Shown here piece after piece: positions 6,501-31,041 of a DNA stretch of 64,000 bases. This stretch comes from an uncultured Bacteroidota bacterium. Lineage in GTDB: Bacteria; Bacteroidota; Ignavibacteria; UBA10030; UBA6906. The notes under the pieces are model-generated. The model was not told the origin of the DNA, searched no databases, and was given only the letters and a program-made list of their open reading frames with translations. The DNA lies in NCBI GenBank assembly GCA_963700635.1, contig CAVOYH010000003.1, positions 384,001 to 448,000 of the forward strand, written 5' to 3'. Within the stretch, counting starts at the first letter, position 1. Every line of letters starts with the position of its first letter. Made by a program: the position numbers and the translations under genes.

Positions 6501-6915
6501 CGCTGGTTTTTGCGGCGCGCACCGCGGCAGTGGTGCCGAGAGCGGTATTGTGTTTTGCGTAGATCCACCCCGACCAGTTGCCGGATGCATCAAGGGTCAC
6601 GACCGGCTGGTTTGAAGCGGAGTACGCAGTTCCATTGCTCCAGGCACTCCCCGTCCACATATACTCAATGGTTATCGAAGAATAGACTTTGACATACGCC
6701 TGCGCATTCGCTGCAGAAGACCATCCCTGGATCCGGACGAAGACAGCGTATGGCGTTCCGACGGATCCTGTCCCGCCGCCGCCGGCAACCGAACCGGGGA
6801 AGACGGCTGCAGTAATAGACTGAGCGGCTGCTGGCCCAATATTGGCAACGGATAGTAGCATCACAACGAAGATGAGTAATCGGATGTATCGTATATTATT
6901 GCGTCTAATCGTCAT
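3517..6915 (-). CDS. secreted phospholipase D/Nuc-like protein with OB-fold pair, FN3-like domain and T9SS CTD
   Basis: Two HxKxxxxD motifs (HNKFVVVD...GSWN; HHKYAVID...GSHN); OB-like VTVRGIVT...YIQDNTGG...GDEVLVSG and ELYEGLLVRVNNV; LLQNYPNPFN CTD. Confidence 0.85.
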   Translation of the reverse strand: MTIRRNNIRYIRLLIFVVMLLSVANIGPAAAQSITAAVFPGSVAGGGGTGSVGTPYAVFVRIQGWSSAANAQAYVKVYSSITIEYMWTGSAWSNGTAYSASNQPVVTLDASGNWSGWIYAKHNTALGTTAAVRAAKTSDTNIRLTSDARTFSVLEMQGSGNGGWIMRPSSPAVNKVLLAYAGGVIVGSYRTEENGIAEGFTYAPGGFKIAVPAGTIDSLVSQNDNGSHDQTFRGPWSVTAGQETDATVGGGSAGRGSIFLSPTTLSGGIAHDVDVAVYGETPYIISTVRIRVPPTWVWSHLPADVLQQGGGTPAVTVAGDTIVVSGMTLSGADSMLLTLKNVVPADTTLLFPFSSSTGTHSDSVFAITTQPSIFVYSIPLPISVVKENDLNGVPLRNNTLVTVRGIVTVANEFGGPSYIQDNTGGMAVYGSSFSTAVATGDEVLVSGLVQPFSGLTEIVNPRLHRTTGSGNIVEPLIVTAADIRRDGAGGVELYEGLLVRVNNVRFGGTGAWASGTNYVLVDATDSTQVRIDNNTNLVGTPIPTSPSDIIGVVGQFVSSPPYIGGYQLMPRSITDLMVTGPGITSVPLETDLTSSSFRIRWTTGLPGTSRLRYGKTASFELGILGTDTAVSIQHSLPVTGLDAASIYHVQVFSVAGGDTSTAGTIVVSTTSPERATGVIRVYFNKSVFSALAPGDPASGNQNFVALLTGRIAAARYSVDAAFYNLSGTPGPGTDIAQALIAARQRGVKVRVISEQDNRGNAPFNSLVAAGVPLITDTFDPVNAGAGLMHNKFVVVDAYGGVPESVWVWTGSWNPSLPGTNDDYQNAIEIQDPALAGAYTVEFNEMWGSATEVPDAAASRFGARKTDNTPHHFVIGGRPVACYFSPSDHATARIIDAIATANHSFHFALLTFTRSDIAGAILQRQAPGFSLHGVMDNRDDSGSRYDYLVSQGVDIRLKTGSGLLHHKYAVIDAGFPASQPMVITGSHNWSNAAENTNNENTLIIEDAGLAMHYVQEFAARYYQFGGSDSIRAHLDRVSSELPSSTVLLQNYPNPFNSTTTVGLRVQGSGATPPRVILKVFDLLGREVATLVDAPLTAGEYRVSFDASTLASGMYLYVMRVGQYQEARTMLLMR

Positions 6916-6982
6916 ATTTCTTCCAAAAAACTCGTTATGGAACGGGTGCTTTTTCGAGCTTGCTGTGACTCACTGTGATCTC

Positions 6983-7011
6983 AAGATACCCATACACCTT
7001 CCCAGGTGCAA
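6983..7011 (-). promoter_or_regulatory. sigma70-like promoter for the PLD/M14 operon
   Basis: Minus strand TTGCAC-17 bp-TATCTT. Confidence 0.55.
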
Positions 7012-7237
7012 GAATCAGTAATGATTTCATAACTTGTTTTTGAAGATTTTCTTGTAGACATTTGTGGCACCTCTCACGGTCACCCCGTTCCAATTCAGAT
7101 TCCGCCACGCTACCAGATGTCTTGGTGGCCCAGACATTCGGCGCCGTACGTTGAGGATAGAGTTCTGCGTTTGCTGAAACAGCGTTCCACCGTTCATCCC
7201 ACAACACAATTCAACACACATCACCAGGAGGTAATGT

Positions 7238-16752: not shown

Positions 16753-19488
16753 TTACAATTGATAGCCAATCATGAAATATGCCATGAATGGTCCCTGCTG
16801 TACGGGTTGATTCGAAAGGCCGGGTTGGAAATAGAACGCTTTTCCCATTCCTACTACGGCAGGACCTATAGGCGTTGCAAGGGCGAGTTCCAGCCCAACT
16901 CCGTGCAGGAGCGAACTGAATTTTATCTCTTCCGGCACCGCAGAAATGGTACCAAAATCGTATCGCGCCCGGATATACGTGTCAAAAAGCCACCGGATTG
17001 GCAGCATGTATCTCAGTTCGATGTTCACAAGGATTAATTGTCTCCCGCGACGGTCGTCTTCCCGCAATCCGTAAAACGAATCACGCCCTCCCATCCGGAA
17101 CTGTTGAGCGAGCGGCATAGTCTCATCGGCGAAACCGATGGTAAACTTTGGATGAAAGGTGAAGTGTTCTCCCAGGCTGGCGTAACTCTCATACATCACC
17201 TGCAGTGCGTTGAAGCCCACATCACTTCCCAGACTTTCCAGGCAGAACTCATACGACATCCGGAATCCGACTCCGGATGTCGGAAACGGGTAGGCGTTTT
17301 TTGTATCGACGATGGTTGCCAGCCGGACCATCGCAAGATGGTACCGTGCACCCAGGGCCGGCACATTGTCCAGATTCACCAGCCGGACATTCTGTACAAT
17401 CAGTTCAGCGGTTGCGTTGCCAAGGCGTTCCAGCAGACTCCCGAACGAGAGGCTGACCCCGTACCGTATGTCACGATATTCGCCAATACTCTCACGTTCC
17501 CAGCGGTTTGGATGTGAAAGTGAACTGTTCACGTAGAGGTACGAATCGTATGACCGGTGGAACGCGCTTATCCCCAGAGTAAGATACGTTTCGAAAAGAC
17601 GTTGCGCGCTGAATTCCAGCTTCACGTCCCCGTTACGCTGTCCCCCCGAAACCGTGAGTCCCAGCTGCATCCCCGTCCCGCGGAAATTTTCATCCCGGAT
17701 GTCCACCAGTCCCTGCAGATGGCGTTCATCATCTGCGCGTAGCCCCATGCGGACAAGTTGCGAGGGCCGTTCTTTGATGCGAATCGTAAGCACGATCTCA
17801 TCCGTCAGCGATGTGATCTCCAGATACACGTACTCGAACAACGATGTTCCGTTGATTTGCGAAAGTCCACGGCGCGCCTGTTCCAGCTGGAACACATCGC
17901 CCGGCACCATGGGAAATTCCTGAAGAAGAAAGGCATCCTGTGTACGCACTCCCCCCTCTACCTCAATTCTGCCGACAACACCCTCATTCATGGTGATCGC
18001 AAGGACCCCGGAGCGTTCATCGAGGTTGAGTGATTCCACGTGAGCCAGGGAGACGCCCCGCTTCCGGTACAGCCTGATGAGATTTTCCCTGGCGAGGGTC
18101 GTCGCGTCGTGGTTCATCACCTTCCCGATGAGCGGCTGGAACACGGACTGCAACTCTGCGGAAGAAACGAGGCGATTTCCAGAAAAGACCACCCGGGAGA
18201 GCAGGGGGTTGGTTCTGGCATGCACCCACAACCGGGATCCCTCTGGCCCGGTCGTTACATCTGCCCAGACGCTATCATAGTTCCCCGTGGCATACACTGC
18301 GCCCAGAAATTGTTCCAGGTCATAGAGCGGAACCGGTCCGACCGTAAACGGCTGCGTGAGGGCCTCCCACAAAGAATCCGGGATCGCCGCATCGTCACGG
18401 TTACATGTGACCGGCGAGCGCAGAACTTCTCCCCCTGCAGCCGCAGCAATACTGTCTGTCAGCCGTTCGTACCGCTTCAGAATATCCGCCAGATGTTGTT
18501 CCGCCGTTTTATCCCCGATCCGGATGAGCGAATCAAGTCCTGCAAATGACGACGAAAGGTGACGCCCGATATCCGGCGTGATAATGATATCTCCGCCTGA
18601 CATCTGACGTTCGTTTACCTGCTTCATCATGATGCCCATGATCTGATCTGCAGTCTGCCAGGGGGCATTCATTTCATCCGCGCGCCGCAGTCCGCTTGCG
18701 GAATTAACAACAATAATAAGGTCACACCCTGCAGCACGCGCCACATCAACAGGAATATTGGATACCAGGCCCCCGTCCACGAGCTGCATGCTGTCTTTTT
18801 CGATAGGCGTAAACAGCAACGGAACTGTTGCGCTCGCGCGAAGCGCTTCAGCCAGCGAGCCATTCTGTAGAACAACCCGTTTCCCCGACACCAGATCCGT
18901 TGCCATGGCGCGGAAGGGTATTTTGAGATGATCAAAATCGGGGAATGGGTAATAGAGCGACTGAAGCATGCGGGCGCTGAGAAAATCTGTGAGGCGCTGC
19001 CCGGTGGATACCGCCGAAGGGAAGACCGGCTGCAATCCTTCAAATCGCACAGCAATAAAACTCCGGTCGTCGAAAATCTTCTGGTCCACAAACAACTGCG
19101 AACGCTGTATTTCGTCCCCGAGGCTGAGCACCTCATCCCAGTCCGTTGACACCGCGAGGGATTCAAGATCCTGTGTGGTGTATCCGGCGGCATACAGACC
19201 ACCGACAATCGCACCCATGCTCGTCGCGGCAATAAAATCAATGGGGATCCCGTTCCTCTCGAGGGATCGCAGGACACCAATCTGAGCAACGCCCCGGGCT
19301 CCACCACCGCTCAGGACAAGTCCGACTTTCGGGCGCTGAAGAGTATGTTGCGTGAGAAGACTTCGTTGTACCACGAAGGGAGGACGGAAGCGTGGATGGA
19401 GCACAAAGGAGGAATCAGCGGCGCAGAGGGCCTGTACACCGAACAACACCAGAACGGGGAGTACCATCATCCGGCGACGGCGCTTCAT
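16753..19488 (-). CDS. patatin-like phospholipase with POTRA and Omp85/BamA barrel (PlpD-like)
   Basis: LSGGGARG, ATSMG, VDGG; POTRA-like segments; FRMGGRDSFYG; terminal YFMIGYQL. Confidence 0.88.
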   Translation of the reverse strand: MKRRRRMMVLPVLVLFGVQALCAADSSFVLHPRFRPPFVVQRSLLTQHTLQRPKVGLVLSGGGARGVAQIGVLRSLERNGIPIDFIAATSMGAIVGGLYAAGYTTQDLESLAVSTDWDEVLSLGDEIQRSQLFVDQKIFDDRSFIAVRFEGLQPVFPSAVSTGQRLTDFLSARMLQSLYYPFPDFDHLKIPFRAMATDLVSGKRVVLQNGSLAEALRASATVPLLFTPIEKDSMQLVDGGLVSNIPVDVARAAGCDLIIVVNSASGLRRADEMNAPWQTADQIMGIMMKQVNERQMSGGDIIITPDIGRHLSSSFAGLDSLIRIGDKTAEQHLADILKRYERLTDSIAAAAGGEVLRSPVTCNRDDAAIPDSLWEALTQPFTVGPVPLYDLEQFLGAVYATGNYDSVWADVTTGPEGSRLWVHARTNPLLSRVVFSGNRLVSSAELQSVFQPLIGKVMNHDATTLARENLIRLYRKRGVSLAHVESLNLDERSGVLAITMNEGVVGRIEVEGGVRTQDAFLLQEFPMVPGDVFQLEQARRGLSQINGTSLFEYVYLEITSLTDEIVLTIRIKERPSQLVRMGLRADDERHLQGLVDIRDENFRGTGMQLGLTVSGGQRNGDVKLEFSAQRLFETYLTLGISAFHRSYDSYLYVNSSLSHPNRWERESIGEYRDIRYGVSLSFGSLLERLGNATAELIVQNVRLVNLDNVPALGARYHLAMVRLATIVDTKNAYPFPTSGVGFRMSYEFCLESLGSDVGFNALQVMYESYASLGEHFTFHPKFTIGFADETMPLAQQFRMGGRDSFYGLREDDRRGRQLILVNIELRYMLPIRWLFDTYIRARYDFGTISAVPEEIKFSSLLHGVGLELALATPIGPAVVGMGKAFYFQPGLSNQPVQQGPFMAYFMIGYQL

Positions 19489-19528
19489 CAGGACACCTCG
19501 CTCAGTCCCTCGCATGTATGCAGCGGAA

Positions 19529-20626
19529 CTACCTCGGCACATCTGTGCTCAGCCGGTAGCGTAAAATTATCCCCTGTTCCTGATCAAGCACGTACAGGAC
19601 TTTTTCGAAGAATGCCAATCCGGAAGGACGGCGCATTTGTCCATCCGAGCGAACGCGACCGAATGATTCCCCGCGCACAACACCGCGGCTGTTGAACTTG
19701 AACACACTGTCCAATCCTGCATCGGCAATAAACACATCCCTGCGCGAAGGATCAATGGCAACAGCCTTCGGGTAGACAAAACGGTTCGGACGGATAAAGT
19801 CAGCCGTCCGGTCCTCGAATCGTGCAGGATCAAACCGCGGCAGCCAACCCTGGAAATCACTTGTGCTTGAATAGACCATCCACAAAGCGCCGTATGCCAC
19901 GCCATCGGATGACTGGACCAGGACAAAATCATTACTGTTCGGGAATGCGGTTATCGATGTTGGATGGTTGATGTTGGCAATCCCGGTTCCGCTGCCGGTG
20001 ACAAAAGCGGGTAGTGGCGTAATAAACTTGTCGTTCTTGTCAAAGTACAGCACACGCGCGTCAGGGTCGATAAAACTTGAATTATCCTGTCCGTCTCTGA
20101 CGGCAAGGTAACTGTTGTCGCTTAATACCGTAATCCCGGGAAACCGTCTCCGGGGATGTGCAAGCTCGCGCCAAACGGTATCGATACGGGCCACTTCCAG
20201 ACGGTGGGCGGAATCCGCGGCCCCCGATACAAGATGAATACGAAACAGTGCACCAACCGTGTCACCGTTGGCAGCCACAAATTCTCCGCCAACAAGGAGA
20301 TCCAGACGGCTGTCCTGGCCGATTGCCACCGGACGGAGCATGGTACGCGTGCTCAATACACCGCCGGCCCTGTTGAGCATGACCAACCGATTCGCACGCG
20401 TGTCAGCCACGTACAGCAATTGGTCCCTGCCCAGCAGCAATCCTTCCGGCCCGGTGAAACCGCCGAACGGCGGCGTGATCGCGACGTATGCTGTGTCAAG
20501 CAGAGAGGCTGGCTGTTGCGGCAGCGTGGAGAGATCCATAGGAGAATCGCAGCCGGCAGTCCAAACCACGAGGCTCGAGATCAGGATAACGATTGAGCGC
20601 TGTATGGTGTCTCGAGAATGTCGCAT
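19529..20626 (-). CDS. NHL/beta-propeller lipoprotein
   Basis: Lipobox TAGC; repeats LYVADT, VFIADAG, PKAVAID, PSGLAF. Confidence 0.75.
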   Translation of the reverse strand: MRHSRDTIQRSIVILISSLVVWTAGCDSPMDLSTLPQQPASLLDTAYVAITPPFGGFTGPEGLLLGRDQLLYVADTRANRLVMLNRAGGVLSTRTMLRPVAIGQDSRLDLLVGGEFVAANGDTVGALFRIHLVSGAADSAHRLEVARIDTVWRELAHPRRRFPGITVLSDNSYLAVRDGQDNSSFIDPDARVLYFDKNDKFITPLPAFVTGSGTGIANINHPTSITAFPNSNDFVLVQSSDGVAYGALWMVYSSTSDFQGWLPRFDPARFEDRTADFIRPNRFVYPKAVAIDPSRRDVFIADAGLDSVFKFNSRGVVRGESFGRVRSDGQMRRPSGLAFFEKVLYVLDQEQGIILRYRLSTDVPR

Positions 20627-21708
20627 CAGTAGGTAAAGGTCACGGAAAATCGGTGAAGGGCGCCCAGCAGACTGTACTGTGAGTACGCATAGTCTGCGGT
20701 AATCGTACTTACGCCGGTCGAAACCCGGAAGCCGGCGCCGAGCATAAAGTTCTCTTCAGAGGTCTCATCAGCTGCAAGCAGTTTCTGACCGATTGTGCGT
20801 TTGATCCCCCCGCGCACAAAAAGCGTATTATGCCACGCATATTCCATACCAAGCCGGACATTCTCCGCATTGTCATTCGGGTGGTTCAATTGAACGGATG
20901 TCGTTAATCGCTGGTCTTCCGACAGGATCGGATCCATTGCGAAGCCGAGTTTGAAGAGCGTCGGCAGGGAGAACGATTGGAATTCGGTCACCGAAACGCC
21001 GCCCGCCGTTGCCACCGTCCCCTGAGGGGCAACATCCGACCCGAAGTTGCTGATCACCACGGCGAACCGTGCGGTTCCCAGTCCCGTCCAGTAATACGTT
21101 CCCAGATCGACCATCACCGACCGCATCCTTAACATATCCAGGGTCTCTTCGACGTAACGGACGGTCGCTCCAAAGCTGAACTGTTCAGTCATTTTCCGGG
21201 CATAGGTCACTCCAATCCCGATATCCCCGAAGCTGAAATACCGCCCGGTGCCGAGTGGCTGGGTCTCCGTCGTGATCTCCATGTCCTGCATGTGGAGGGA
21301 TGTCAGGGACAGCCCGATCGCGTCTGCATCAGTAAGATGGTAGATGGCGCCAAGGTATTCATGCCGGATTTCTGCAACATACTCGGTATGTGCAACAAAG
21401 ACCTGATCTTCCTCGGTCTGTACAAGACCTGCCGGATTCCAGAAGAGACTCGACGCATCGTCAGCGACAGCCACGAATGCCTCGCCCATAGCCACACCGC
21501 GCGCGCCAACACCAATCTTAAGGAATTGGAACGCTGAGATCCCGGCCCGCTGCCCGCCGAGATTTGGTACAAGTTGCGCCTCTGCGGAGACCACGCCGAG
21601 ACAACTCATAAGCGCGAACAGGAGTATTGCCGGTCCTGCGTGCTCCCGGCACGGGCGACCGGTTCGTCGCGCCCTATCATGTTTCCGTATGGAGTGTTCT
21701 CTTGCCAT
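20626..21708 (-). CDS. PorV/PorQ (FadL-like) outer-membrane barrel
   Basis: FLKIGVGARGVAMGEAFVAVADDASSLFWNPAGL; terminal HRFSVTFTY. Confidence 0.85.
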   Translation of the reverse strand: MAREHSIRKHDRARRTGRPCREHAGPAILLFALMSCLGVVSAEAQLVPNLGGQRAGISAFQFLKIGVGARGVAMGEAFVAVADDASSLFWNPAGLVQTEEDQVFVAHTEYVAEIRHEYLGAIYHLTDADAIGLSLTSLHMQDMEITTETQPLGTGRYFSFGDIGIGVTYARKMTEQFSFGATVRYVEETLDMLRMRSVMVDLGTYYWTGLGTARFAVVISNFGSDVAPQGTVATAGGVSVTEFQSFSLPTLFKLGFAMDPILSEDQRLTTSVQLNHPNDNAENVRLGMEYAWHNTLFVRGGIKRTIGQKLLAADETSEENFMLGAGFRVSTGVSTITADYAYSQYSLLGALHRFSVTFTY

Positions 21709-21711
21709 CGG

Positions 21712-24579
21712 TTAAAACCTGAACGAAATACTGCCGCGTATGGTACGGGGGTTCAGATACCGTGCCGGGCTGTACGGGAACGGCGACACACCCCCCGTCA
21801 ATTGCGGATAAAGCGGGTCGTTGTAGCCTGACGGTGTCGCATCGCCGTATTCATAGGCTCGTCCCGTGACGGGGTTGACGATCTGCGAGTTCCGCGTATC
21901 CAACAGATTCTGTATCTCAATACTCGCCACAAGTTTTCCGAATCCCAGTGGAATGGACTTTTCAAGATTCACGTCGATATAGAACCACGGCTCGCCGATC
22001 CCGCCATTCACGTTGTCCAGATCCGCGATGTACTGTGGCCGGCCGGTGCTGGGATCGTCGCCCGTGTACAGCTGGGGCGTGTACCGCTTGCCGGACTGAT
22101 AAAACACGCGCACGAAGGCATTCCAATCGTCCAGAAATCCCGGAGCCACACCAAACAACGGCTGATCCTTTGGGACCGAAAAATTTAACGTCATGGAAAT
22201 CTGAACGGGGCGATCCCAGATAAGATAGTTTTCACGGATGTTCTCGGGCTCCCCCTGCTGGATGCGGATCACATTCTCGTTGGGCGCGGAACTCTTGCCC
22301 GTGGCAATGGAATAGGATCCTGCCACGCCACCCCGGAACCAGTTGCCGAACCGTGTCTTGTATTCCACCTCAATACCGCGCACGCGACCGTAGTCGGAGT
22401 TGAGATACGTTGAATAGTACTGTGCTCCGCCCACAGAATTGAGCCGCAGAACAGTCTTCTCCGTGATGTAGTCAAATATGTCCTTGTAGAATGCTGTGAT
22501 GGTGAGAACATCACTGCCGGACAACTGATTCCGGAGGCCGAGTTCATACGCAACCGTGGTTTCGGGATTCAGATTCGGGTTTCCCACCGGCAGAGACGAT
22601 CGCACAGAACTCTGGTTGAGCTTTGCGTACACAAACTGCGGACGCGGGAGCTTGGAGAAATGGCCGTACGAGAAGAACAGGGTCTGGTTATCGGAAACGG
22701 GATGGGAGATACCGAGCCGCGGGCTCAGTCGTGCCTTATACCGGCGCCCGAAGAGGGACACGGTGTTGTCCTTGTACTCGTTACGAAGCGCCGATGAGAT
22801 GATCAGGGTGGACGACGTGTCTTCCGCGATATCATCGACGAATTTGCCGGGGGCCCAGTAGTCCAGCCGCAGGCCAAAATTCAGCAACATCCCGCTCAAC
22901 GCAACATTGTCCTGCGCGTAAAACGATCCCTGCAACGGCTGTACGCTGTACACATCATGGTCAAATCCAAGCGGCTTCACCCAGGGTCGATAAATGTCAA
23001 CCATCTGCATATCCTGAAACCGGACCTCAAAGCCGGCCTTGAATTTGTTTTTCTCCGAAAAGAAATTCGTCAGATCCCCCTTGAGCGTGTACTCTGTCAG
23101 GAAATGATCGCGCCAGGATGTCGGTGAACCAAGATCATAGAACCCGTCGCCCGGAACAACTCCAACGGTGTCGCGGCCGAGGTTGTAATAGGTGATCGGA
23201 TACGTCACAATATCCTGCGGCTCAAGGTATGCGCTAAATTCCTTCCCGTTTGCATCACCGCGGATATGAGCCGTGTACCGGCTCAGTTTGACCTCATAGA
23301 AGGTCTGCGTGCTCAGCGTGTGCGTCCAGGAGAATGAATGCTGGATATTAATCTGGGTGAACGTTTGCGCACTGTCAGGGATAAACTGAAACAGATACTG
23401 ATACCCCGGATTCGGCTCAATATATTCCAGGGTCGCCTGGATTGCCTGCGTGTTCTGGTCGATCACCACGGACTGGTTATAGGCATACGCAAGTTTCATG
23501 GTCGGATCCGGTTTCCAGGTGACCTTGCTGAGCCAGGAATAGTTGTTGGAGCGCCGTGGTGCCCACCGCTTGCCCCCGGCGATGGATGAATACAGGCCAT
23601 TGGGGGCTTTGACCACCCATCCGCTTGGCCGGTAATCTCCTCCTACCGTTTCAACCCAGCGGGTGAAACCATCGGTGAGGTTCGCATAGAGCGACCCGAA
23701 AAAGCTGACAGTCCCCGGAATCTCAAGACCGATGGCCGGCAACACAAAGGTGGTCAAGGGCTCAGGACCACTGAGTGTTGCGTCATAGATGTCGGTATTC
23801 CAGTTTGAGCGGGTGTCATTGTTGAATCCGAAATGATCAGTTTTGTATCCCAGCGAGCCGCTGTAACGGTCCGACCCTTCACGTGTGGTAATATTGACTA
23901 TACCCGATGTCGCCTGGCCGTATTCTGCATTATAACCGCCGGTGATCACTTCCACTTCCTGGATCGAAGACGGACTCAGCTGAAGGCCGAACCCTGAGCC
24001 GGCCATGGGATCCTGAATCGAGATGCCATCCAGCAGGAATGCATTCTCGTGCGTGCGGCCGCCCCGGATGTGGATTTCGTTATCGGCCATCACCACACCG
24101 GGTTGCATGGCGACAACAGCCTGCACGTTCTGCACGGCAGCCGCCTGAATGTCCGCCTGCTGCACATTCCGGCGGCTGGCAGTTTCTTCTATATCGAACA
24201 GCGGCCGTTCACCGATGACCACAATATCCTGACCCAGGGTCAGCACGGTCTCTTCCAGCTTTGCACGGATGGTGGTCGTTTGTCCGGCTTCCACCTTCAC
24301 ATTCGTAAACTTCACCTGTTTGTAGCCCAGCAGCGACACCTCAACGACATAGGCCCCGGGATTAATCGATTCGATGCGGACGTTTCCCTCGATGTCAGTT
24401 GTTCCGCCATAGTACGTCCCCTTGACCACCACATTGGCGCCGGGAAGCCCTTCCCCTGTCCCGGACTCAGTCACCGTCCCGACAATCCGGCCTGTGGTCT
24501 GGGCAGAGACCCGGGCGGGAATCATCAGGAGCGCCGCGACAAGCAGGCAAAGGGTTCCTTGTTGCACAACCTTCTTCAT
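21712..24579 (-). CDS. TonB-dependent receptor
   Basis: Signal peptide, N-terminal extension, IHIRGGR, ITGGYNAEYGQATSGIVNI, GNPNLNPE, C-terminal FRF. Confidence 0.92.
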   Translation of the reverse strand: MKKVVQQGTLCLLVAALLMIPARVSAQTTGRIVGTVTESGTGEGLPGANVVVKGTYYGGTTDIEGNVRIESINPGAYVVEVSLLGYKQVKFTNVKVEAGQTTTIRAKLEETVLTLGQDIVVIGERPLFDIEETASRRNVQQADIQAAAVQNVQAVVAMQPGVVMADNEIHIRGGRTHENAFLLDGISIQDPMAGSGFGLQLSPSSIQEVEVITGGYNAEYGQATSGIVNITTREGSDRYSGSLGYKTDHFGFNNDTRSNWNTDIYDATLSGPEPLTTFVLPAIGLEIPGTVSFFGSLYANLTDGFTRWVETVGGDYRPSGWVVKAPNGLYSSIAGGKRWAPRRSNNYSWLSKVTWKPDPTMKLAYAYNQSVVIDQNTQAIQATLEYIEPNPGYQYLFQFIPDSAQTFTQINIQHSFSWTHTLSTQTFYEVKLSRYTAHIRGDANGKEFSAYLEPQDIVTYPITYYNLGRDTVGVVPGDGFYDLGSPTSWRDHFLTEYTLKGDLTNFFSEKNKFKAGFEVRFQDMQMVDIYRPWVKPLGFDHDVYSVQPLQGSFYAQDNVALSGMLLNFGLRLDYWAPGKFVDDIAEDTSSTLIISSALRNEYKDNTVSLFGRRYKARLSPRLGISHPVSDNQTLFFSYGHFSKLPRPQFVYAKLNQSSVRSSLPVGNPNLNPETTVAYELGLRNQLSGSDVLTITAFYKDIFDYITEKTVLRLNSVGGAQYYSTYLNSDYGRVRGIEVEYKTRFGNWFRGGVAGSYSIATGKSSAPNENVIRIQQGEPENIRENYLIWDRPVQISMTLNFSVPKDQPLFGVAPGFLDDWNAFVRVFYQSGKRYTPQLYTGDDPSTGRPQYIADLDNVNGGIGEPWFYIDVNLEKSIPLGFGKLVASIEIQNLLDTRNSQIVNPVTGRAYEYGDATPSGYNDPLYPQLTGGVSPFPYSPARYLNPRTIRGSISFRF

Positions 24580-24610
24580 AAGGAAAAGACCGTCCTGTAG
24601 ATTGTTGTCC

Positions 24611-26377
24611 TTAGAAACGCGCCCTGTTTATCACCTGGGCCGGGCTGAATTGGACGAGCGCCTTGTCAAAAAAGGCGCCCAGTCCGCGCGGGTTTCCCTC
24701 TGTTGTATTGTTGAGAAGATGTAATGGGAGACCCACAAAGATAATAGTGTTCTGTCCATCAATGACCGCCAGATTGGGCGAGCCCAGATACCGCTGCGGG
24801 ATCCGCGCGTCCGCTTGCATACGATAAATGTATCGCGCATCCGAGCGGCGGTAGATCGGACGCATAAAGACCGAATGGATCACGGGTGACGTATTAAAGG
24901 CAAGCTGCGGATAGACCGACGACAGATCACTGCTGTCCGCATACACGACGTAGTTTGCCGGTATCCTCGAGTCGCCCACAACGGCCGGTGGCGGTGCCGG
25001 ACGTGTCGGAGAAAGATCAACGCTGCTCACGCTGTCAATCGGTGCGAAGTCCCGCAAGGCCCCGCGCGGATCACTCGTGTTCAGAAACATCGTCGAGAAT
25101 ATCACCCGCCCGCCGTTCTGAAGATACGGGAAAATGGACAGCTGCGCGACGCCGAGACTGGGCACCTGATCGGTGTACCAGAGCACGTAATCATACAGAA
25201 GAAAGGTCTGAATCAGAGCGGGGTCCACAAATTGAGGAACCAATCGGCCGTACCGCCCCGCCTCCTTGTCCGCCGCTGTTACACCAAGGGTTATGTCCAG
25301 CTGGTCTACCTGCGTGAATGCACCGCCGGGCACGGAAGCAAGTGCACTGCTGTACGTCGTCCGGGCAAGCTGAGCATCGAAGTTTGTATAGTCACTCACC
25401 AGAAGCAACTTCGCACGTGGTTTGCGGACGTACCACCGGTCTGTTCCCGACGGAAGACGGAGCGGAAGACTGTATTCACCTGCAACGTCCCGCGCCTGGA
25501 CAAAAACAGCATTGTCAGCGTCCAGACGGAGATTCGGCACCTGGCCGATAAGACGCCTGCCGAGAAACGGTCCGCTGTACAGATCAGCCGTCACCGTAGC
25601 ACCCGCCGCGTCACTCCGCGAACGGGGCACAACCATCGTCACGATCGTATCACGGAGCGCCACCGTCACCCATTGCCCGGTGGCACCGGTGTCGTTGAGC
25701 GCAATACGATACGACGCAAGTGTGTTATCCCCGTCCGAATCGGAACCCTTAAATCCAATGGTGATCACCGTGTATGTCGTATCGGGGAGCCGCTGGACTA
25801 TGGTGGCGTCTTTGGGATTGGGGAGCAAACCGATTGTCGGCGGTGTGTTGCGAATAGGGAACGTCAGGACTGCCCCGACCGGGTCAACCGCTCCGGTGAG
25901 CGTTTCAAGACGCTGATCGGCGGCGTCAAACACCCCGTTGTCATTCTTGTCCCAGAACGGGAACGGTAACAAACGGACGGGGCTGTGCTCCGGGAGCCCC
26001 GGGAACGCATCATCCACAGCCCGCACCACGACGGCAAACCGCCTGAAGAGCGTGTCCAGCGGAAAAAGAAACGTTGAATCGTTGCGGGTCACCCAAACAT
26101 ACCGAAGCGTGTCCGGCACAGGCAGTGTCGTGACATTCCCGGTGACCACCTTGAACGAAAAGAGGTAGCCGCGAATGAGGCCGTCCGGCGACTCGCCCCA
26201 CCAGCGCAGATGTGTCCGGCTCACGCCAACACGCACCTCAGCGTCGGGAAACAGCCACAAAAATGTTTGTGGGGGCCTCCCGGGAACCGGCTTGTCCGTC
26301 ACACTCTCACGGCAACCGGAGAGCTGAAGCGCAAAAAGCGCCACAACCGCAAACGATATAGAATAGTATTTCAGCAC
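24611..26377 (-). CDS. hypothetical lipoprotein
   Basis: GTG start after GGAG, lipobox LSGC; beta-rich; DKNDNG Ca-loop-like motif. Confidence 0.75.
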   Translation of the reverse strand: MLKYYSISFAVVALFALQLSGCRESVTDKPVPGRPPQTFLWLFPDAEVRVGVSRTHLRWWGESPDGLIRGYLFSFKVVTGNVTTLPVPDTLRYVWVTRNDSTFLFPLDTLFRRFAVVVRAVDDAFPGLPEHSPVRLLPFPFWDKNDNGVFDAADQRLETLTGAVDPVGAVLTFPIRNTPPTIGLLPNPKDATIVQRLPDTTYTVITIGFKGSDSDGDNTLASYRIALNDTGATGQWVTVALRDTIVTMVVPRSRSDAAGATVTADLYSGPFLGRRLIGQVPNLRLDADNAVFVQARDVAGEYSLPLRLPSGTDRWYVRKPRAKLLLVSDYTNFDAQLARTTYSSALASVPGGAFTQVDQLDITLGVTAADKEAGRYGRLVPQFVDPALIQTFLLYDYVLWYTDQVPSLGVAQLSIFPYLQNGGRVIFSTMFLNTSDPRGALRDFAPIDSVSSVDLSPTRPAPPPAVVGDSRIPANYVVYADSSDLSSVYPQLAFNTSPVIHSVFMRPIYRRSDARYIYRMQADARIPQRYLGSPNLAVIDGQNTIIFVGLPLHLLNNTTEGNPRGLGAFFDKALVQFSPAQVINRARF

Positions 26378-26453
26378 GATTCTCCGAATCCTGTCAGGCC
26401 ACGCTTCCGGCGTTGCCGGAGCGCGGCTCAATCAGGATATCACTTTTTCCATA

Positions 26454-28706
26454 CTATTTCACCAGCATCATCTTCTTCACTGCTCTGAACGAGCCGCTTT
26501 CAACGCGATAAAAATACACGCCGCTCGGAAGGGACGATGCATTAAACCGGACCGTATGCCTGCCGGCGGCCTGCTGGCCGTTGAACAACGTCGCAATTTC
26601 CTGCCCGATAAGATTGTACACACGTATTGTGGTCAGTCCGGCAGAAGGCAGCAAATACTGAATTGTTGTCGCAGGATTGAACGGATTCGGGTAGTTCTGC
26701 TCCAGCGCATAGGCCACTGGTGTTGTTCCGGGCAGATCCTGTTCGACGCCGGTCACAACTCCGAAGAAATCAGCGTCGGTGCGCGGCACAAACTTGTACT
26801 GATTGAAGCTGTAGTACACAATTCCGGTCAGAGCGCCGATCTTTGTCCCCACGGTGAGGATGGTCTTCCCTGAAGCGGAATCCGCGGCAATATTCGAAAA
26901 GTTGTATTTCCCGCTTCGCTGGACCACGATGCCGCCACTTCCGTCATTGACGGTGAACTCCGTGGGATCAGAGAATGTGGGATTGAGGTCGGTCACGGTC
27001 ACGTTGATAAACCGTACCAGCATCCCTTCATACATCTCTGCGCTTGCCACTCCGTTGCCGACACTGAGCGTGCTCGTGGTGCGGACCACAGGCTCAGGCC
27101 CCGGGTTGCCGCCGGATACCTTTACCACCGAGGTGATGTTTCCCAGGCGGGTAACGTCGAACTGTTCCTGGACGGTTCCGGTCACTATGATACTGTCGCC
27201 GTTCCGCAATGCGGCCATCTGCCGCTGGGCCGCGGTATCGGACGTCGTCAGCCAGAGGCCGTTCCAGGGTTGATTCGTGGACTGCATGTACCACGCGTTG
27301 GTGCTCCCTGTCGTCACGGGCGAAAGTGATACGTTTGCGGTGTCACCGGTGACAATTCCCGACAGGCTCAGGACCGCGCCCAGATATGGACTCCGGCCGT
27401 TTATGTATGGCGTATACTGGACGTCCTGTATGGCAAGAGGGCGAAGCAGTGATGTATAGAAGAAGAACCCCTTGGACGTGTCCGATGCAAGGCCGCCACT
27501 TGTGGAAGAATTGGCGAGCCGCACGGTCTGGCCGAAGGAATCAGAGACAGCAATAAAATAACGCACCACGACATTGGTTTGCTGCGACGGGATCACGCCC
27601 AGATAGGTGGTATCCGAAGCCTGATACGTCATCGCGACAGTCTGGAATGCCGCGTAATTGACACTATACAACAGCGATACGGTTTTGGGTGTGGACCCGT
27701 TTGGCTGTTGTGTTACGCGCACGCTGACCTTGGCCGTCGAGTCCGGAGATACCACAACCGGGTTCCGGCGATGGGAAGCAATGAGCGGGGGTGTAGGTGC
27801 GGCTGCAAAGACGATATCCCCGCGGTACATCGGCGAAATGCGGTAGCCACGCGGTCCCTCACTGCCGGATGCTGTTGTAATATATCCCCGGATCGTGTCG
27901 ATCCGGGTACCGTTGCCGATCGCCGCATAGATCCTCGACCAGGCCGTGTCCGCAGGCCAAGGGGGAAGCTGGGACGTCCCGTGTCCGAGCGTGAAATAAC
28001 GGGACCAGTCGTAATCCGAAATCTCGTTCCCTGAGGCGTCCACCATGCTGAATGTTCCCCGGGGAATGTTCACCTTGTTATTCAACGTGACATTATGGAA
28101 CTCCACATACATCCCCTCGAAGGGTTCACCACTTGCGACCTGGACTTTCCCCGTTGAGAACACTCCGGTATAAAAGTCGCCGATGTTTTTGACGATCGGC
28201 TTGGGAAGGGGCGCCGCACCGATAATGCTGATGGGGTTTCCGGCAACAGGTTCGATCTGCGACGCGCTAGTTCCTCTGGACGTGGGAAATTCACTTATCC
28301 AGCCGACCAGCGTAATGATATCGCCGGCTTCCACATTCAGGAACCCGTCTGTTTTAAGCTGTGTGCTGTCCGCAATATTGGCACGAAGGAGAATCCCGCC
28401 CCAATCGGAGGCCACCGCGGCGGTGTCGTACAGCAGCATCGTCCAGATGTCCGCCGTGTACGTGATCACACCGGGGGGCACGGCCACAAGCGCGGTCACG
28501 CGCACCGTATCACCCATGTACGGGGAGGTCTGCAATGTCCATCGCGGCTGCGTTGAGTTCGCGGCAAAATTTGTGATCCCGTCCGCAACGACGAGGGATT
28601 CTGCAGGAACCTGCTGGAGCTGACGGACGGTGACGTCCGGATACTGCGCCAGCGCCGAAGACACCGCGGCCGCCAGCAGGACAACAGATAGAAAAATTCG
28701 GTTCAT
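26454..28706 (-). CDS. T9SS CTD protein built from duplicated OB-fold pairs, no recognisable catalytic domain
   Basis: SPYMGDTVRVTA...EPFEGMYVEFHNV and SPYLGAVLSLSGIVT...EMYEGMLVRFINV...YKFVPR; LEQNYPNPFNP CTD; RBS AAGGAGAGG. Confidence 0.8.
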   Translation of the reverse strand: MNRIFLSVVLLAAAVSSALAQYPDVTVRQLQQVPAESLVVADGITNFAANSTQPRWTLQTSPYMGDTVRVTALVAVPPGVITYTADIWTMLLYDTAAVASDWGGILLRANIADSTQLKTDGFLNVEAGDIITLVGWISEFPTSRGTSASQIEPVAGNPISIIGAAPLPKPIVKNIGDFYTGVFSTGKVQVASGEPFEGMYVEFHNVTLNNKVNIPRGTFSMVDASGNEISDYDWSRYFTLGHGTSQLPPWPADTAWSRIYAAIGNGTRIDTIRGYITTASGSEGPRGYRISPMYRGDIVFAAAPTPPLIASHRRNPVVVSPDSTAKVSVRVTQQPNGSTPKTVSLLYSVNYAAFQTVAMTYQASDTTYLGVIPSQQTNVVVRYFIAVSDSFGQTVRLANSSTSGGLASDTSKGFFFYTSLLRPLAIQDVQYTPYINGRSPYLGAVLSLSGIVTGDTANVSLSPVTTGSTNAWYMQSTNQPWNGLWLTTSDTAAQRQMAALRNGDSIIVTGTVQEQFDVTRLGNITSVVKVSGGNPGPEPVVRTTSTLSVGNGVASAEMYEGMLVRFINVTVTDLNPTFSDPTEFTVNDGSGGIVVQRSGKYNFSNIAADSASGKTILTVGTKIGALTGIVYYSFNQYKFVPRTDADFFGVVTGVEQDLPGTTPVAYALEQNYPNPFNPATTIQYLLPSAGLTTIRVYNLIGQEIATLFNGQQAAGRHTVRFNASSLPSGVYFYRVESGSFRAVKKMMLVK

Positions 28707-28781
28707 GGTAACCTCTCCTTAATGATGTTTAAATACACACAGCCAAGCCGCAGGCACCACGTACATCCGTCGCAGCTGATA

Positions 28782-30908
28782 TCATTTGATGATCAAAAAC
28801 TTCCCTGTTTGCACATTTCCTGTATCCGTGTCTTTCACACTGAACAGGTATAATCCCGTAGCAATGGCCTGGTCGAACTTCGTAATCAGGTCCCAGGCAT
28901 GCTCCCCGCCGGAAAACTGGATGGGCACGTCACTACCGCCGAATTGGCGGAACCACTGAATATCCCTGCCCGTATAGGTTGCGGCATCATGCGATAATTC
29001 AGCCACGATATCGCCGGCCAGCGTATAGACGCGGATGGTGCAACGCTGCGGGAGATTTGTAAAATAGATCTTGCGGGTCCGTTCTCCTGAAGCATCCCAC
29101 GCTGCTTGCGCGTAGTACGGGTTCGGATACACGCCTACCTTCTGCGTACCGGAGTTGGGAGATGCACCGGAGACAATCCTCACAATCACCATCTTGCTCT
29201 CCAGTGAGCTTACACCCGCTGCGGAATCTCCCTGATCAAACGACGAAACACCATACACATACTGCCACCCGCTGAGGTGGCTCACGGTGACGTCCTTGGG
29301 CGGGAAGCGGTACCAGTAGGTCACGGTGTCACCGGCAAACTGTTTCGGTTGGTCCAGAAGGATCTTCCCGAAGCCGGTGTTGTATCCAATCTCGTTGTCG
29401 GCCCTGTCAAACTCGCCGACCCGGGGAAGTGTCAACAGCAGATTTGCCGGATCCGTGAAATCGGAACCGGCATTGGATCGGTAGATACGGTATCCCTCAA
29501 AATCCAGCTTCCGTGATATCGGATCGATGGAAGTTTCTGCGCTGGTCATGTCCCAGTAGAGGACCACGTTCTGGTTCTCCAGTTCGGCGCGAACGACGGG
29601 CGGTTTCGGGGGCTGTGGAAGCCGGTAATGATCCAGAATACCGTTGCCGTTCAGGTCTTCACCGGGATCAAGTCTGTTATTGCCGTTCAGGTCCTCACCG
29701 TCATACGCCTGCTGACACAACGCTGCATTCGAAACGAGCGTCTTGCGCTGATCACGCGTGTCAAGCCGGGCCGCCTGCGTTCCGGCCTTCCGCGCGCACA
29801 CGACGCCGAAGACGACCGACACTGAATCCCCGGGCTTGAGAGTGACAAATGGACCGGTGGAGAGTAATGTGGTCATGTTGTCAGCCTGGGTGCGCAGGGG
29901 ATCGATTTTGTTCTGCGGGAGAGACGTGACAAGCCGTTCATACCGGCTGCGCGCACCCAGAATATTCTCTGCATCGTCCTGTGGCGAAAAATACTCTGCA
30001 TCCCCGCTCGAGCTGCTGTACCGCCAGGCATTGTAGTACGTTCGCCCGCCAAGATGACCGAGGGAATCTATCCCCCGCGGAAATGGCACTGCTCCCAGGA
30101 GTTTGATGCCGACATACGAATCCGCCGCGGGGGGGGTGGGAATACCGTCAAAATCGAAGGTGTATCCCATGCGCAGGGAATCCAGATATCCGTTTGCGCC
30201 ATGGTTAAAGAATCCGGGTGTCCCCGGACGCACATTGTTGGTATTCCGCACAACGTTGTTGGTCCAGAGACCAACATACACGGAGTCGAGGGTATCGGCA
30301 CCGGCATTATAGATCGTGTAGTTCAGAATCACAAAAAAATCGGCAAACGGAAAATTCCAGGCATAACTTTCCTGATGCACCCGGATCCCGAGCGGGGTAG
30401 ATTGATCCGGAGCAGAACTGTCACGCACCACGAAATCGTGGTAATCCGCCAAAAAATCCTGATGGCTCACAGCATGCTGATCGAAGTACGGAGATTCCGA
30501 AAGGGTGGAACGCTGCACGACTGATGAGCCGGCCAGGGACAAATACTCGATACCTTTTCCGGTCGTGGTAGAAACCCGGTCGCTTGACCCCGTGGAAACA
30601 TGGATTTGTCCGGTACGGCGTGAGAGCGCTCCTACCCACAACGCGCCCTGATACATATGTTCTACGCGGGATCCCCGTGGATATTCACAGGATGGCTGGC
30701 TCGGCCAGTAGGCATTCCGTGTGCCGATTGTGCCGAAGTTGGTGACCGTGAGCCCCAGTGAGCCGGCCGTCGTGGCGTTTCTGTCCGTGTCCTCAGTCCG
30801 CTTTGCAAGCTCCTGAGAAGACGCCATGCTGCCCGCACTACTCATCAAGAGCAGCACCGAGAAAAGCACGGCTGGGACAGTAATAGGAAGAATGTGCGGA
30901 CAGCGCAT
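28782..30908 (-). CDS. secreted protein with DxNGN repeats, FN3-like domain and variant CTD
   Basis: Signal peptide; LTVTNFGTIG...CEYPRGS; EDLNGN x2; DFEGYRIYRS; VYPNPYY...FTNLP...IRVYTLAG...WDL...GLYLF...GKFLIIK. Confidence 0.8.
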   Translation of the reverse strand: MRCPHILPITVPAVLFSVLLLMSSAGSMASSQELAKRTEDTDRNATTAGSLGLTVTNFGTIGTRNAYWPSQPSCEYPRGSRVEHMYQGALWVGALSRRTGQIHVSTGSSDRVSTTTGKGIEYLSLAGSSVVQRSTLSESPYFDQHAVSHQDFLADYHDFVVRDSSAPDQSTPLGIRVHQESYAWNFPFADFFVILNYTIYNAGADTLDSVYVGLWTNNVVRNTNNVRPGTPGFFNHGANGYLDSLRMGYTFDFDGIPTPPAADSYVGIKLLGAVPFPRGIDSLGHLGGRTYYNAWRYSSSSGDAEYFSPQDDAENILGARSRYERLVTSLPQNKIDPLRTQADNMTTLLSTGPFVTLKPGDSVSVVFGVVCARKAGTQAARLDTRDQRKTLVSNAALCQQAYDGEDLNGNNRLDPGEDLNGNGILDHYRLPQPPKPPVVRAELENQNVVLYWDMTSAETSIDPISRKLDFEGYRIYRSNAGSDFTDPANLLLTLPRVGEFDRADNEIGYNTGFGKILLDQPKQFAGDTVTYWYRFPPKDVTVSHLSGWQYVYGVSSFDQGDSAAGVSSLESKMVIVRIVSGASPNSGTQKVGVYPNPYYAQAAWDASGERTRKIYFTNLPQRCTIRVYTLAGDIVAELSHDAATYTGRDIQWFRQFGGSDVPIQFSGGEHAWDLITKFDQAIATGLYLFSVKDTDTGNVQTGKFLIIK

Positions 30909-30967
30909 GAATTCGGGATCATTCAAGGGTGGAACGGGGGTGAAATCGCGTGAAGAGTATGTTAATC

Positions 30968-30996
30968 AATATATTTTTAATGCGACGGAAAGTCAA
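30968..30996 (-). promoter_or_regulatory. sigma70 promoter for the surface operon
   Basis: Minus strand TTGACT-17 bp-TATATT in AT-rich divergent gap. Confidence 0.65.
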
Positions 30997-31041
30997 GTTG
31001 CATTTGAGAGGGATTTTCTCCATTTTTTTACGTCTACGACG

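Follow-up and report, generated by a model that had tools for sequence, protein, structure and literature searches.

A predicted six-gene operon of SusD-less Bacteroidota encodes a TonB-dependent receptor, a PorZ-like variant-tail protein and a PorV-family barrel: a candidate system for the uptake of extracellular nucleic acid

Introduction

TonB-dependent nutrient capture in Bacteroidota is understood almost wholly through the SusC/SusD pair, and since Ignavibacteria, Rhodothermia and Balneolia possess many such TonB-dependent receptors (TBDRs) and no SusD, the question arises what takes the place of the surface partner in these organisms. We address it here through a gene cluster of an uncultured member of the Ignavibacteria (assembly GCA_963700635.1; 4.2 Mb on 6 contigs, 97% complete). 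The analysed stretch, in the following called the window, comprises 64,000 nucleotides of contig CAVOYH010000003.1 (positions 384,001 to 448,000 of the forward strand), and seven co-oriented open reading frames (ORFs), g1 to g7, occupy its positions 16753-30926 on the minus strand (Table 1). An earlier note made from the letters alone had described these seven genes as a candidate capture and uptake system outside the SusC/SusD model, in which a PorV-like barrel displays cargo of its own next to a TBDR, with DNA or RNA fragments as the plausible substrate.

The answer proposed here is that the six genes g1 to g6 may encode a single SusD-less outer-membrane uptake machine, most likely for extracellular DNA or RNA, a reading to which we give about even weight. 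If true, a partner delivered through type IX secretion (T9SS) and seated on a PorV-like barrel of its own would account for the way in which capture complexes are built in these bacteria, and docking of this kind would furthermore assign a function to the many PorV/PorQ paralogues that lack an explanation. Handling of DNA by the operon, if it takes place, would also matter for gene transfer in these groups and, in sediments, soils and saline waters, for the turnover of extracellular DNA and the cycling of phosphorus.

Conservation and layout of the operon

Of 20 orthologous loci at distances ranging from genus to phylum, 19 have g1 to g6 in the order of the window, and the twentieth (L061) is without g2. 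In a wider scan taking one genome per species, 573 relatives of g1 were found among 600 matched stretches and 80 loci were kept, 42 of which have at least 9.9 kb after g1; in 37 of these 42 the genes g1 to g5 follow each other in order, two have an extra gene after g2, and three lack the operon. The cluster is therefore more than a chance neighbourhood, and the synteny survey proposed in the earlier note has indeed returned a conserved order. The carriers of g1 relatives are, as labelled, Ignavibacteria, 'Chlorobi'-group bacteria, Bacteroidota metagenome-assembled genomes (MAGs), Rubrivirga, Balneola, Rhodohalobacter and Chloroherpetonaceae, and single MAGs labelled Calditrichota and Eisenbacteria likewise carry them; isolates are among the carriers labelled Rubrivirga and Rhodohalobacter. 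Among 301 sampled genomes of the phylum g1 is present in 96 (E <= 1e-30), usually as a single copy, and g3 in 92, mostly as one full-length match; in three well-sampled families (0/63, 0/22 and 0/16 genomes) neither gene was found. The operon is patchy also within the order and class of the window itself, occurring for example in 6 of 14 and 8 of 16 genomes of two families. The most conserved genes are g1 and g4, and g3 and g6 diverge fastest. We can conclude that the six-gene core is an old, single-copy, order-conserved operon, as predicted from these comparisons.

The seventh gene does not belong to this core. It follows g6 only in L057 and L058 of the 20 loci, which are the nearest relatives, and in one (L081) of the 42, an occurrence that rules out g7 as part of the conserved system. 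The patatin-POTRA-barrel protein that the earlier note had counted as a seventh component is a lineage-specific addition, which need not belong to the mechanism.

A thermolysin-type M4 peptidase with FlgD_ig at its C-terminus and no Por_Secre_tail match is encoded between g2 and g3 in L090 (13601-16747, + strand), and a different protein of 1003 residues, ending in a T9SS C-terminal domain (CTD), is inserted at the same place in L126. In L061, the locus without g2, the g3 orthologue (L061:8033-10645, - strand, 870 aa) has BNR/PSII_BNR repeats in a C-terminal extension.

As regards the layout in the window, the coordinates given in the earlier note for the seven co-oriented genes are exact and its domain calls hold, as do the gap of 3 bp between g4 and g5 and the overlap of 1 bp between g5 and g6; g6 and g7 overlap by 14 bp, and the remaining gaps measure 75 bp (g1-g2), 22 bp (g2-g3) and 31 bp (g3-g4). 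Across loci the median gaps are -1 bp for g3-g4 (19 loci), 1 bp for g4-g5 (19 loci) and -4 bp for g5-g6 (17 loci), g3 abutting or overlapping g4 in the majority of loci, and because such tight junctions are kept throughout g3-g4-g5-g6, they suggest that translation of these genes may be coupled. The only intergenic region exceeding 80 bp is one of about 116 bp upstream of g1, which holds a promoter-like site. Its length depends on the start of a divergent BatA-like/VWA gene, since the listed ORF (30826-33237, + strand) overlaps g1; the BatA domain and the N-terminal sequence place that start near 31043. The sigma-70-like site that had been put forward as the promoter is present and agrees at 10 of 12 positions, and it is at most a plausible promoter of g1, because matches of this kind are as frequent in the region as expected by chance (10 found against 9.1 +/- 2.6 expected, and thus no excess). 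A scan for sigma-70 sites and terminators likewise gave no sites above shuffled sequence.

Table 1. Coordinates of the operon genes and of further features. Positions without a locus name refer to the window, and residue ranges to the encoded protein.
Feature	Coordinates	Strand	Length	Domains (residues)	Basis
Promoter candidate, sigma-70-like, upstream of g1	30968..30996	-		TTGACT-17-TATATT	10/12 matches
g1, variant-CTD protein	28782..30926	-	714 aa	signal peptide; supersandwich ~46-437; GEDxNGNGxLDPGED Ca-loop-like; FN3 ~445-585; PorZ-like variant CTD ~596-714	ORF list; without Pfam family
g2, OB/DUF5689-like protein with type A CTD	26454..28706	-	750 aa	DUF5689/OB-like ~25-305 and ~425-650; Ig-like middle; type A CTD 672-747	Pfam/NCBIfam
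g3, lipoprotein	24611..26431	-	606 aa	lipobox LSGC; beta-sandwiches ~49-335; GATase1/ThuA-like alpha/beta ~340-600	lipobox; without Pfam family
g4, TBDR	21712..24579	-	955 aa	CarboxypepD_reg; Plug; TonB barrel	CarboxypepD_reg + Plug + TonB barrel
g5, PorV/PorQ-family (FadL-like) outer-membrane barrel	20626..21708	-	360 aa		NF033709
g6, NHL-repeat beta-propeller lipoprotein	19529..20626	-	365 aa	NHL	NHL weak, E 3.2e-6
g7, patatin + POTRA + Omp85 protein	16753..19542	-	929 aa	patatin; POTRA; Omp85	Pfam/NCBIfam
Secreted DUF5689 + double PLD (NucT-like) protein with type A CTD	3517..6915	-	1132 aa	DUF5689; double PLD; type A CTD	DUF5689 30.5 bits (over cut-off); PLDc_2 E 5.7e-37
SLT + LysM lytic transglycosylase genes	L060:2-1936, L062:3-1856, L063:1-1683	+			SLT + LysM
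SLT + LysM lytic transglycosylase gene	L065:15038-16999	-			SLT + LysM

A barrel specific to the operon and the protein it probably holds

The product of g5 passes the model of the PorV/PorQ family, NF033709 (221.1 bits against a cut-off of 90, E 2.8e-65, model positions 2-325 of 326), and stays under the cut-offs of both equivalog models, with 88.3 bits against 250 for PorV (NF033710) and 95 bits against 220 for PorQ (NF033711); a weak Toluene_X match is found in addition. It is one of 18 genes over the family cut-off, among 25 family matches in the genome. The best-scoring of them (312 bits) lies on another contig and directly follows a Peptidase_C25/PorU gene (E 3.4e-85), and is by this token the predicted housekeeping PorV, which g5 is not. 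In the tree g5 and 11 orthologues form a clade of their own (support 100/99) that is separate from the 17 further PorV-family genes of this genome included in it, and this supports the prediction that g5 is an operon-specific PorV paralogue. The earlier note had taken the same view, and the alternative it had named, namely that the barrel might be the only housekeeping PorV of the genome, falls with the separate PorU-PorV pair. Elsewhere in the same genome (L026, C5:195123-197058) two tandem PorV-family barrel genes are found with no TBDR or variant-CTD protein nearby; they branch together in the tree, one of them on a very long branch.

If the barrel is a private one, it may be asked which protein it serves, and the tail of g1 gives the best indication. 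Although g1 has no Pfam match and its tail scores 0 with the type A CTD model built in this analysis, profile-profile comparison aligns the tail family with type A CTDs over 79 columns (probability 97.4%, E 1.6e-11), from which we conclude that the tail is a true, if predicted, variant of the type A CTD. It measures about 110 residues, with a lengthened loop following the PNPY motif, and escapes detection by the Pfam model, and the g1 orthologues carry a further insert of about 22 residues within it. A model of the variant, built from 11 of the proteins concerned, picks out exactly 14 proteins of the genome with scores of 68-134 bits, every one of which scores 0 with the type A model; ordinary type A proteins follow as the next matches, with no more than 35 bits. 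For 13 of the 14 genes a PorV-like gene lies 0-101 bp from the end, and the fourteenth is g1, in the same operon as g5. The PorZ of the genome reaches 330 bits with the PorZ model and 27 bits with that of the variant, against a score of 0 with type A, and the C-terminal part of the PorZ model finds its best matches in the variant tails (E 1e-10), the match of g1 itself to the PorZ C-terminus being weak. In passages of a review (PMC10202324) the CTD of PorZ is described as retained and bound to PorQ, and cognate PorV-like barrels are proposed to shield such CTDs from cleavage. Because of the gene pairing and of the likeness between the variant tail and that of PorZ, it is g1 that is probably the protein held by g5. 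The OB-fold protein g2, which the earlier note had made the cargo of the barrel, is not favoured, because it ends in the ordinary type A CTD common to about 130 proteins of the genome, and the variant CTD, found 14 times, is always clustered with a PorV-like barrel.

The remainder of g1 has a predicted structure with a pLDDT of 78. In a wide structure search the body (residues 46-437) is a supersandwich of the galactose-mutarotase-like type, with a match to 9ju0 (Z 19.1, rmsd 3.5, 261 residues aligned), and it also resembles the N-terminal domains of glycoside hydrolases (GH) of the families GH94, GH15 and GH65 (Z 19.1 to 14). A profile search of g1 against the PDB gave nothing usable, and a Foldseek search of the PDB gave only low TM-scores; in the ESM Atlas all 30 of the 30 clusters nearest to the body are without a name.

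A family of receptor, partner and barrel modules

A comparison of the seven proteins with every ORF of the genome placed 14 of 20 PorV-like ORFs in a cluster with a TBDR. In 13 of these 14 modules the order is TBDR, a protein of 590-1283 residues, and barrel; the middle proteins are paralogues of g1, and all of them end in a common tail of about 110 residues. Only the window locus departs from this order: there the operon begins with g1, and the receptor is directly next to the barrel. One other module (C3:33111-37725) contains both the closest paralogue of g4 in the genome and that of g1. Next to 12 paralogous modules are genes for LacI, GH38, an MGH1/rhamnosidase-type GH, GHL10, an ABC sugar transporter and PIG-L deacetylases, and because of these neighbours the modules as a class look like nutrient-uptake units. 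By prediction, then, the window locus is an ancient single-copy locus within a large family of TBDR/partner/barrel modules, 14 of which are present in this genome.

No SusD_RagB match was found anywhere in the 97% complete genome by a search that was positive in the control, Bacteroides thetaiotaomicron, and in agreement with the earlier note the cluster itself holds no SusD-like or glycosidase gene recognisable by Pfam. The gene cluster is apparently undescribed, since no account of a module of TBDR, variant-CTD protein and PorV-like barrel was found in the literature covered, to which subscription journals and supplements did not belong.

In 4 of 14 paralogous modules a partner or receptor gene is split or frameshifted, for which decay or assembly errors are possible reasons. 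The genes concerned are those of the partner at C3:1798795-1801291, C3:1654095-1657558 and C4:64321-66756 and of the receptor at C4:60512-63161 and C3:141420-144624, and the split-gene loci are L019:3796-6300, L021:3596-7060, L022:1000-7260 and L023:14400-17650.

The secreted protein g2 and the gene after g6

The notion of a nucleic acid substrate stems from two sets of observations, the make-up of g2 and the nature of the gene that follows g6 in related organisms. The type A CTD of g2 is clear (Por_Secre_tail, PF18962/TIGR04183, 45 bits against a cut-off of 27, E 1.3e-11), present in 19 of 19 orthologues, and resembles the solved T9SS CTD 8glj_D. The protein also matches the beginning (positions 3-116 of 546) of NF033681, the model of ExeM/NucH nucleases, with 42.8 bits (cut-off 300) and E 3.3e-11. 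DUF5689 is matched by 4 of 19 orthologues (E <= 0.01, best 7.7e-6) and the OB fold likewise by 4 of 19, and an hhalign comparison of the g2 family with 10 DUF5689 proteins of the DdbD type aligns 182 columns (probability 77.8%, E 1.9e-5). Furthermore a lamin-tail domain (LTD) is found in two Balneola-type orthologues (E 2.5e-11 and 6.9e-12) among 14 g2-type or neighbouring proteins scanned. The Ig-like domain resembles that of the Porphyromonas peptidylarginine deiminase (PPAD; E 6e-7), this region gives weak matches to CBM_56, and in the ESM Atlas g2 finds nameless clusters first and then clusters named Por_Secre_tail, OB-fold or DUF5689 that score below 0.9. On this basis g2 is a probable binder of a polymer, by prediction a nucleic acid. 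The idea that g2 might be the sole DUF5689-like protein of the genome was dropped, as hmmscan finds a stronger DUF5689 domain in the protein encoded at window positions 3517-6915.

The gene after g6 was surveyed in 59 loci (20 and a further 39), and 13 downstream genes were scanned in the first 20. It encodes a double-PLD protein, often with DUF5689 or LTD and with a CTD, in 6 loci, an EEP protein, mostly with a CTD (one is only a weak match), in 8, and an NPP-type phosphodiesterase in 10, in three of them after a second TBDR; in 29 loci it is none of the three and in 6 it was not resolved. A nuclease or phosphodiesterase from one of three unrelated enzyme families thus follows g6 in 24 of 59 orthologous loci. 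In the four cases tested the PLD domains have the nuclease NucT as their best match, under the cut-off (E 4.9e-9 to 1.7e-19); weak matches link the EEP proteins to the membrane nuclease MnuA and the NPP proteins to the phosphatase PafA. Because three unrelated families of phosphodiester-cleaving enzymes occupy the same position, and because of the make-up of g2, nucleic acid is the best-supported substrate, and the comparison suggests DNA or RNA as the leading hypothesis for what the operon handles. The second TBDR lies between g6 and the NPP gene in three genomes of one family (L222:1165-3918, L223:1830-4463 and L224:1091-3739, all on the + strand); the call rests on CarboxypepD_reg, Plug and barrel domains in L222 and only on a phmmer match to g4 in L223 and L224.

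The genome of the window has a protein of the same kind, encoded at 3517-6915 about 10 kb beyond g7 and on the same strand, a spacing that is kept only in the two nearest relatives. NucT is its best NCBIfam match (E 4.9e-9, under the cut-off), it is 42% identical over 863 residues to the seventh operon gene of L202, and its orthologue type is the seventh operon gene in related families. It is probably the enzyme that corresponds, by prediction, to the nuclease of the operon. Beside it lies a gene for a protein with M14 carboxypeptidase, MAM-like and type A CTD regions (1070-3511, - strand).

In Bacteroides thetaiotaomicron the genes ddbABCDEF are reported, in the parts of a preprint consulted here, to be required for the depletion of exogenous DNA, and the DUF5689 protein DdbD is proposed there as the substrate-binding partner of the TBDR DdbC on the grounds of an AlphaFold3 model and of likeness to the domain with which p202 binds DNA (bioRxiv 10.1101/2025.03.18.642099). 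A homologous pair of Riemerella anatipestifer, RA0C_RS04915/04920, is given as essential for natural transformation in the portion seen of a further study (PMC8459023). When the TBDRs adjoining strong DUF5689 genes in 10 genomes were compared with all ORFs of the genome, 6 of 10 had their best match in window 7238-10147 (E 7e-9 to 1e-16) and 4 of 10 had no match. The gene at 7238-10147 (+ strand) encodes a TBDR with CarboxypepD_reg and forms a divergent pair with 3517-6915 (- strand). This pair, 3517-10147, is on sequence grounds a better candidate than g4 for DNA utilisation of the Ddb type.

Proposed mechanism and alternatives

In the mechanism that we propose, g1 would be exported by the T9SS with its PorZ-like variant CTD kept, and would stay docked on g5 beside g4, as PorZ does on PorQ, so as to act as the surface partner or lid, the role that SusD lipoproteins have in Bacteroidia. 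The product of g2 would leave by the ordinary PorV/PorU route, be fixed to the surface and bind a polymer through its two DUF5689/OB-like modules. This polymer would most likely be extracellular DNA or RNA cut by secreted nucleases, for which 3517-6915 is the candidate here. The receptor g4 might then import the fragments with energy from TonB, serving the supply of nucleotides, phosphate or nitrogen or the outer-membrane step of transformation, and g3 and g6 would be further surface or periplasmic parts.

Several observations speak against this proposal, and some of them concern the docking of g1. Of the 14 matches to the variant-CTD model only three (124.7, 113.6 and 67.8 bits) are independent of its construction, and adjacency of tail and barrel genes is also what duplication of whole modules without any binding would produce. 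Others concern the substrate. The operon of the window holds no nuclease gene, and what follows g6 there is an autotransporter of the phospholipase type. The support that the earlier guess of DNA or RNA has gained is comparative and comes from the DUF5689, ExeM N-terminal and LTD likeness of g2 and from the 24 of 59 loci. These 24 positives are kin clustered in six sample families (5/6, 3/3, 4/4, 10/12, 1/1 and 1/1) and not 24 independent events, and no positive is found among the remaining 32 loci, to which all 12 from the order of the window belong. In five of the positive loci (L198-L202) and in L213, furthermore, g6 was not fetched or not detected, and adjacency is deduced from the distance to g1. 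The DUF5689 match (PF18942) of g2 itself, at 21.1 bits, is under the Pfam cut-off of 28.6, and 15 of 19 orthologues have no such match. That g4 might be the DdbC orthologue is ruled out, as none of the 10 DdbC-like receptors matches it at E <= 1e-5. Finally the fold of the g1 body is typical of carbohydrate-active enzymes, the paralogous modules look glycan-directed, and the PLD, EEP, NPP and patatin families also include enzymes that cleave phospholipids.

The last points lead to the possibility that the same architecture serves a glycan, as the paralogous modules seem to do, with the modules of g2 binding polysaccharide. The likeness of the g1 supersandwich to GH N-terminal domains, the CBM_56 matches in the Ig region of g2, the sandwiches of g3, which resemble carbohydrate-binding modules (CBM) or FN3, and the sugar-related genes near 12 paralogous modules are all in agreement with it. 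A shared fold shows no function, however, and in the 20 loci inspected there is no glycosidase, lyase or sugar-regulator gene in or beside the six genes, the recurrent neighbours being the nucleases and phosphodiesterases mentioned above; the single copy and the high conservation of g1 and g4 are moreover unlike the diversifying polysaccharide utilisation loci (PULs). We regard a glycan substrate as unlikely for these reasons. A different phosphodiester, such as a phospholipid, a lipid-linked or teichoic-type polymer or an organic phosphate, with g5 forming a channel through which a hydrophobic product passes, rather than a dock, seems rather improbable. The phospholipid-cleaving members of all four enzyme families, that of g7 among them, and the weak PafA matches of the NPP genes would suit such a substrate, and the PorV family is described as FadL-like in the sections consulted of a study (PMC12578637), with which the weak Toluene_X match of g5 agrees. 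The PLD domains nonetheless match NucT best, and in 4 of 7 PLD proteins scanned (six seventh genes and 3517-6915) they are fused to DUF5689, in one case with LTD as well, in the manner of ExeM/NucH-type nucleases; a role as channel furthermore leaves the one-to-one link between variant CTD and barrel unexplained.

That the operon imports nothing and builds a surface structure instead, be it an adhesin, an S-layer-like assembly or an attachment complex associated with the T9SS, in which the TBDR-like barrel would be an anchor or have some other role, is in our opinion very improbable. It would account for a single-copy core without enzymes that is conserved across classes, and relatives of PorV/PorQ are described at work in attachment complexes (PMC10202324, in the part concerned with them), just as a FadL-like barrel is described as a structural part of the BAM complex of Bacteroidota (PMC12578637, likewise in part). 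It is in poor agreement with the complete plug, barrel and N-terminal extension of g4, which are like those of active TBDRs, and with the nutrient-use contexts of 13 paralogous modules, and the patchy occurrence within orders is more in keeping with an accessory nutrient system than with an essential structure. The reading of g1 to g6 as a nucleic acid uptake machine can be extended into a joint proposal that we hold only tentatively and think rather doubtful as a whole, in which an uncleaved PorZ-like CTD on a private PorV/PorQ barrel would be the general lipid-free partner of TBDRs in the SusD-less relatives of Bacteroidia, used 14 times here, and the operon would be a DNA/RNA importer and a second independent solution beside DdbC/DdbD, possibly the entry for transformation in Ignavibacteria, Rhodothermia and Balneolia.

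Relation to known systems

The operon resembles SusC/SusD (RagA/RagB) systems in that a TBDR of the CarboxypepD_reg type is encoded together with surface partners and lipoproteins, and in that paralogous modules lie in PUL-like loci. It differs from them in the absence of SusD from the cluster and from the genome, in the score of g4 with the SusC/RagA model TIGR04056, which is 65.6 bits against a cut-off of 368 and covers only model positions 3-209 in the N-terminal part, and in the nature of the partner, which would be a T9SS protein with a variant CTD on a private PorV-like barrel and not a lipid-anchored helical lid. The lipoprotein g3 is not SusD-like either.

With DdbC/DdbD and the Riemerella pair the operon shares a CarboxypepD_reg TBDR accompanied by a DUF5689-like protein, as well as secreted nuclease genes beside orthologous operons. 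Unlike in those systems, g4 is not of the DdbC type, g2 is secreted by way of a T9SS CTD instead of being a lipoprotein, both of its DUF5689-like modules are weak and under the Pfam cut-off, and there are four extra conserved genes, g1, g3, g5 and g6. The operon was moreover not found in three sample families that have strong DUF5689 genes or none (0/16, 0/63 and 0/22).

The pairing of g1 and g5 is reminiscent of PorQ-PorZ, of PorV-PorU and of type B CTDs with PorP/SprF, since a barrel of the PorV/PorQ family is paired genetically with one protein whose CTD is unlike the cleaved type A, and since the variant tail resembles that of PorZ. The pair of the window differs in being tied to a TBDR and multiplied 14 times; g5 furthermore stays under both equivalog cut-offs, and retention of the tail is here a prediction. 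As to the ExeM/NucH nucleases with their LTD, OB-fold and EEP domains, g2 matches the model at its start, LTD occurs in some orthologues and EEP or PLD genes follow the operon in relatives, whereas g2 itself is without a catalytic domain, falls far short of the cut-off and resembles the binding part of such an enzyme alone.

Remaining genes and minor observations

The receptor g4 has a CarboxypepD_reg N-terminal domain and a complete plug and barrel. Every one of 19 orthologues of g3 has the lipobox cysteine, as has every one of 19 orthologues of g6. The structure predicted for g3 (pLDDT 82) matches 7bob (Z 13.2) and 2gk3 (Z 12.5), within a range of Z 13.2 to 12; its sandwiches are CBM/FN3-like, and a PDB profile search gave only a weak FN3-like match. 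An analogy of g3 to SusD is ruled out by this predicted fold of beta-sandwiches and a GATase1-like domain, which is not the helical one of SusD.

In g7 the patatin (E 1.6e-30), POTRA (E 8.1e-11) and Omp85 (E 3e-24) domains are joined in one polypeptide, an architecture that we take to be that of a type Vd autotransporter (a phospholipase like PlpD or FplA). The likeness to PlpD/FplA lies in this single chain; the difference is that the activity of g7 is a predicted one and that it is joined to the operon only in the nearest relatives.

Rfam elements, riboswitches included, were found neither in the window nor in 19 orthologous loci save for a piece of a group II intron in L120, where a MAG contig carries an intron domain (L120:193-306, + strand; 46 bits, with 40 as the cut-off) some 0.7 kb upstream of the g1 orthologue. 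In four loci a gene for a lytic transglycosylase with SLT and LysM domains stands directly upstream of g1 on the same strand (Table 1).

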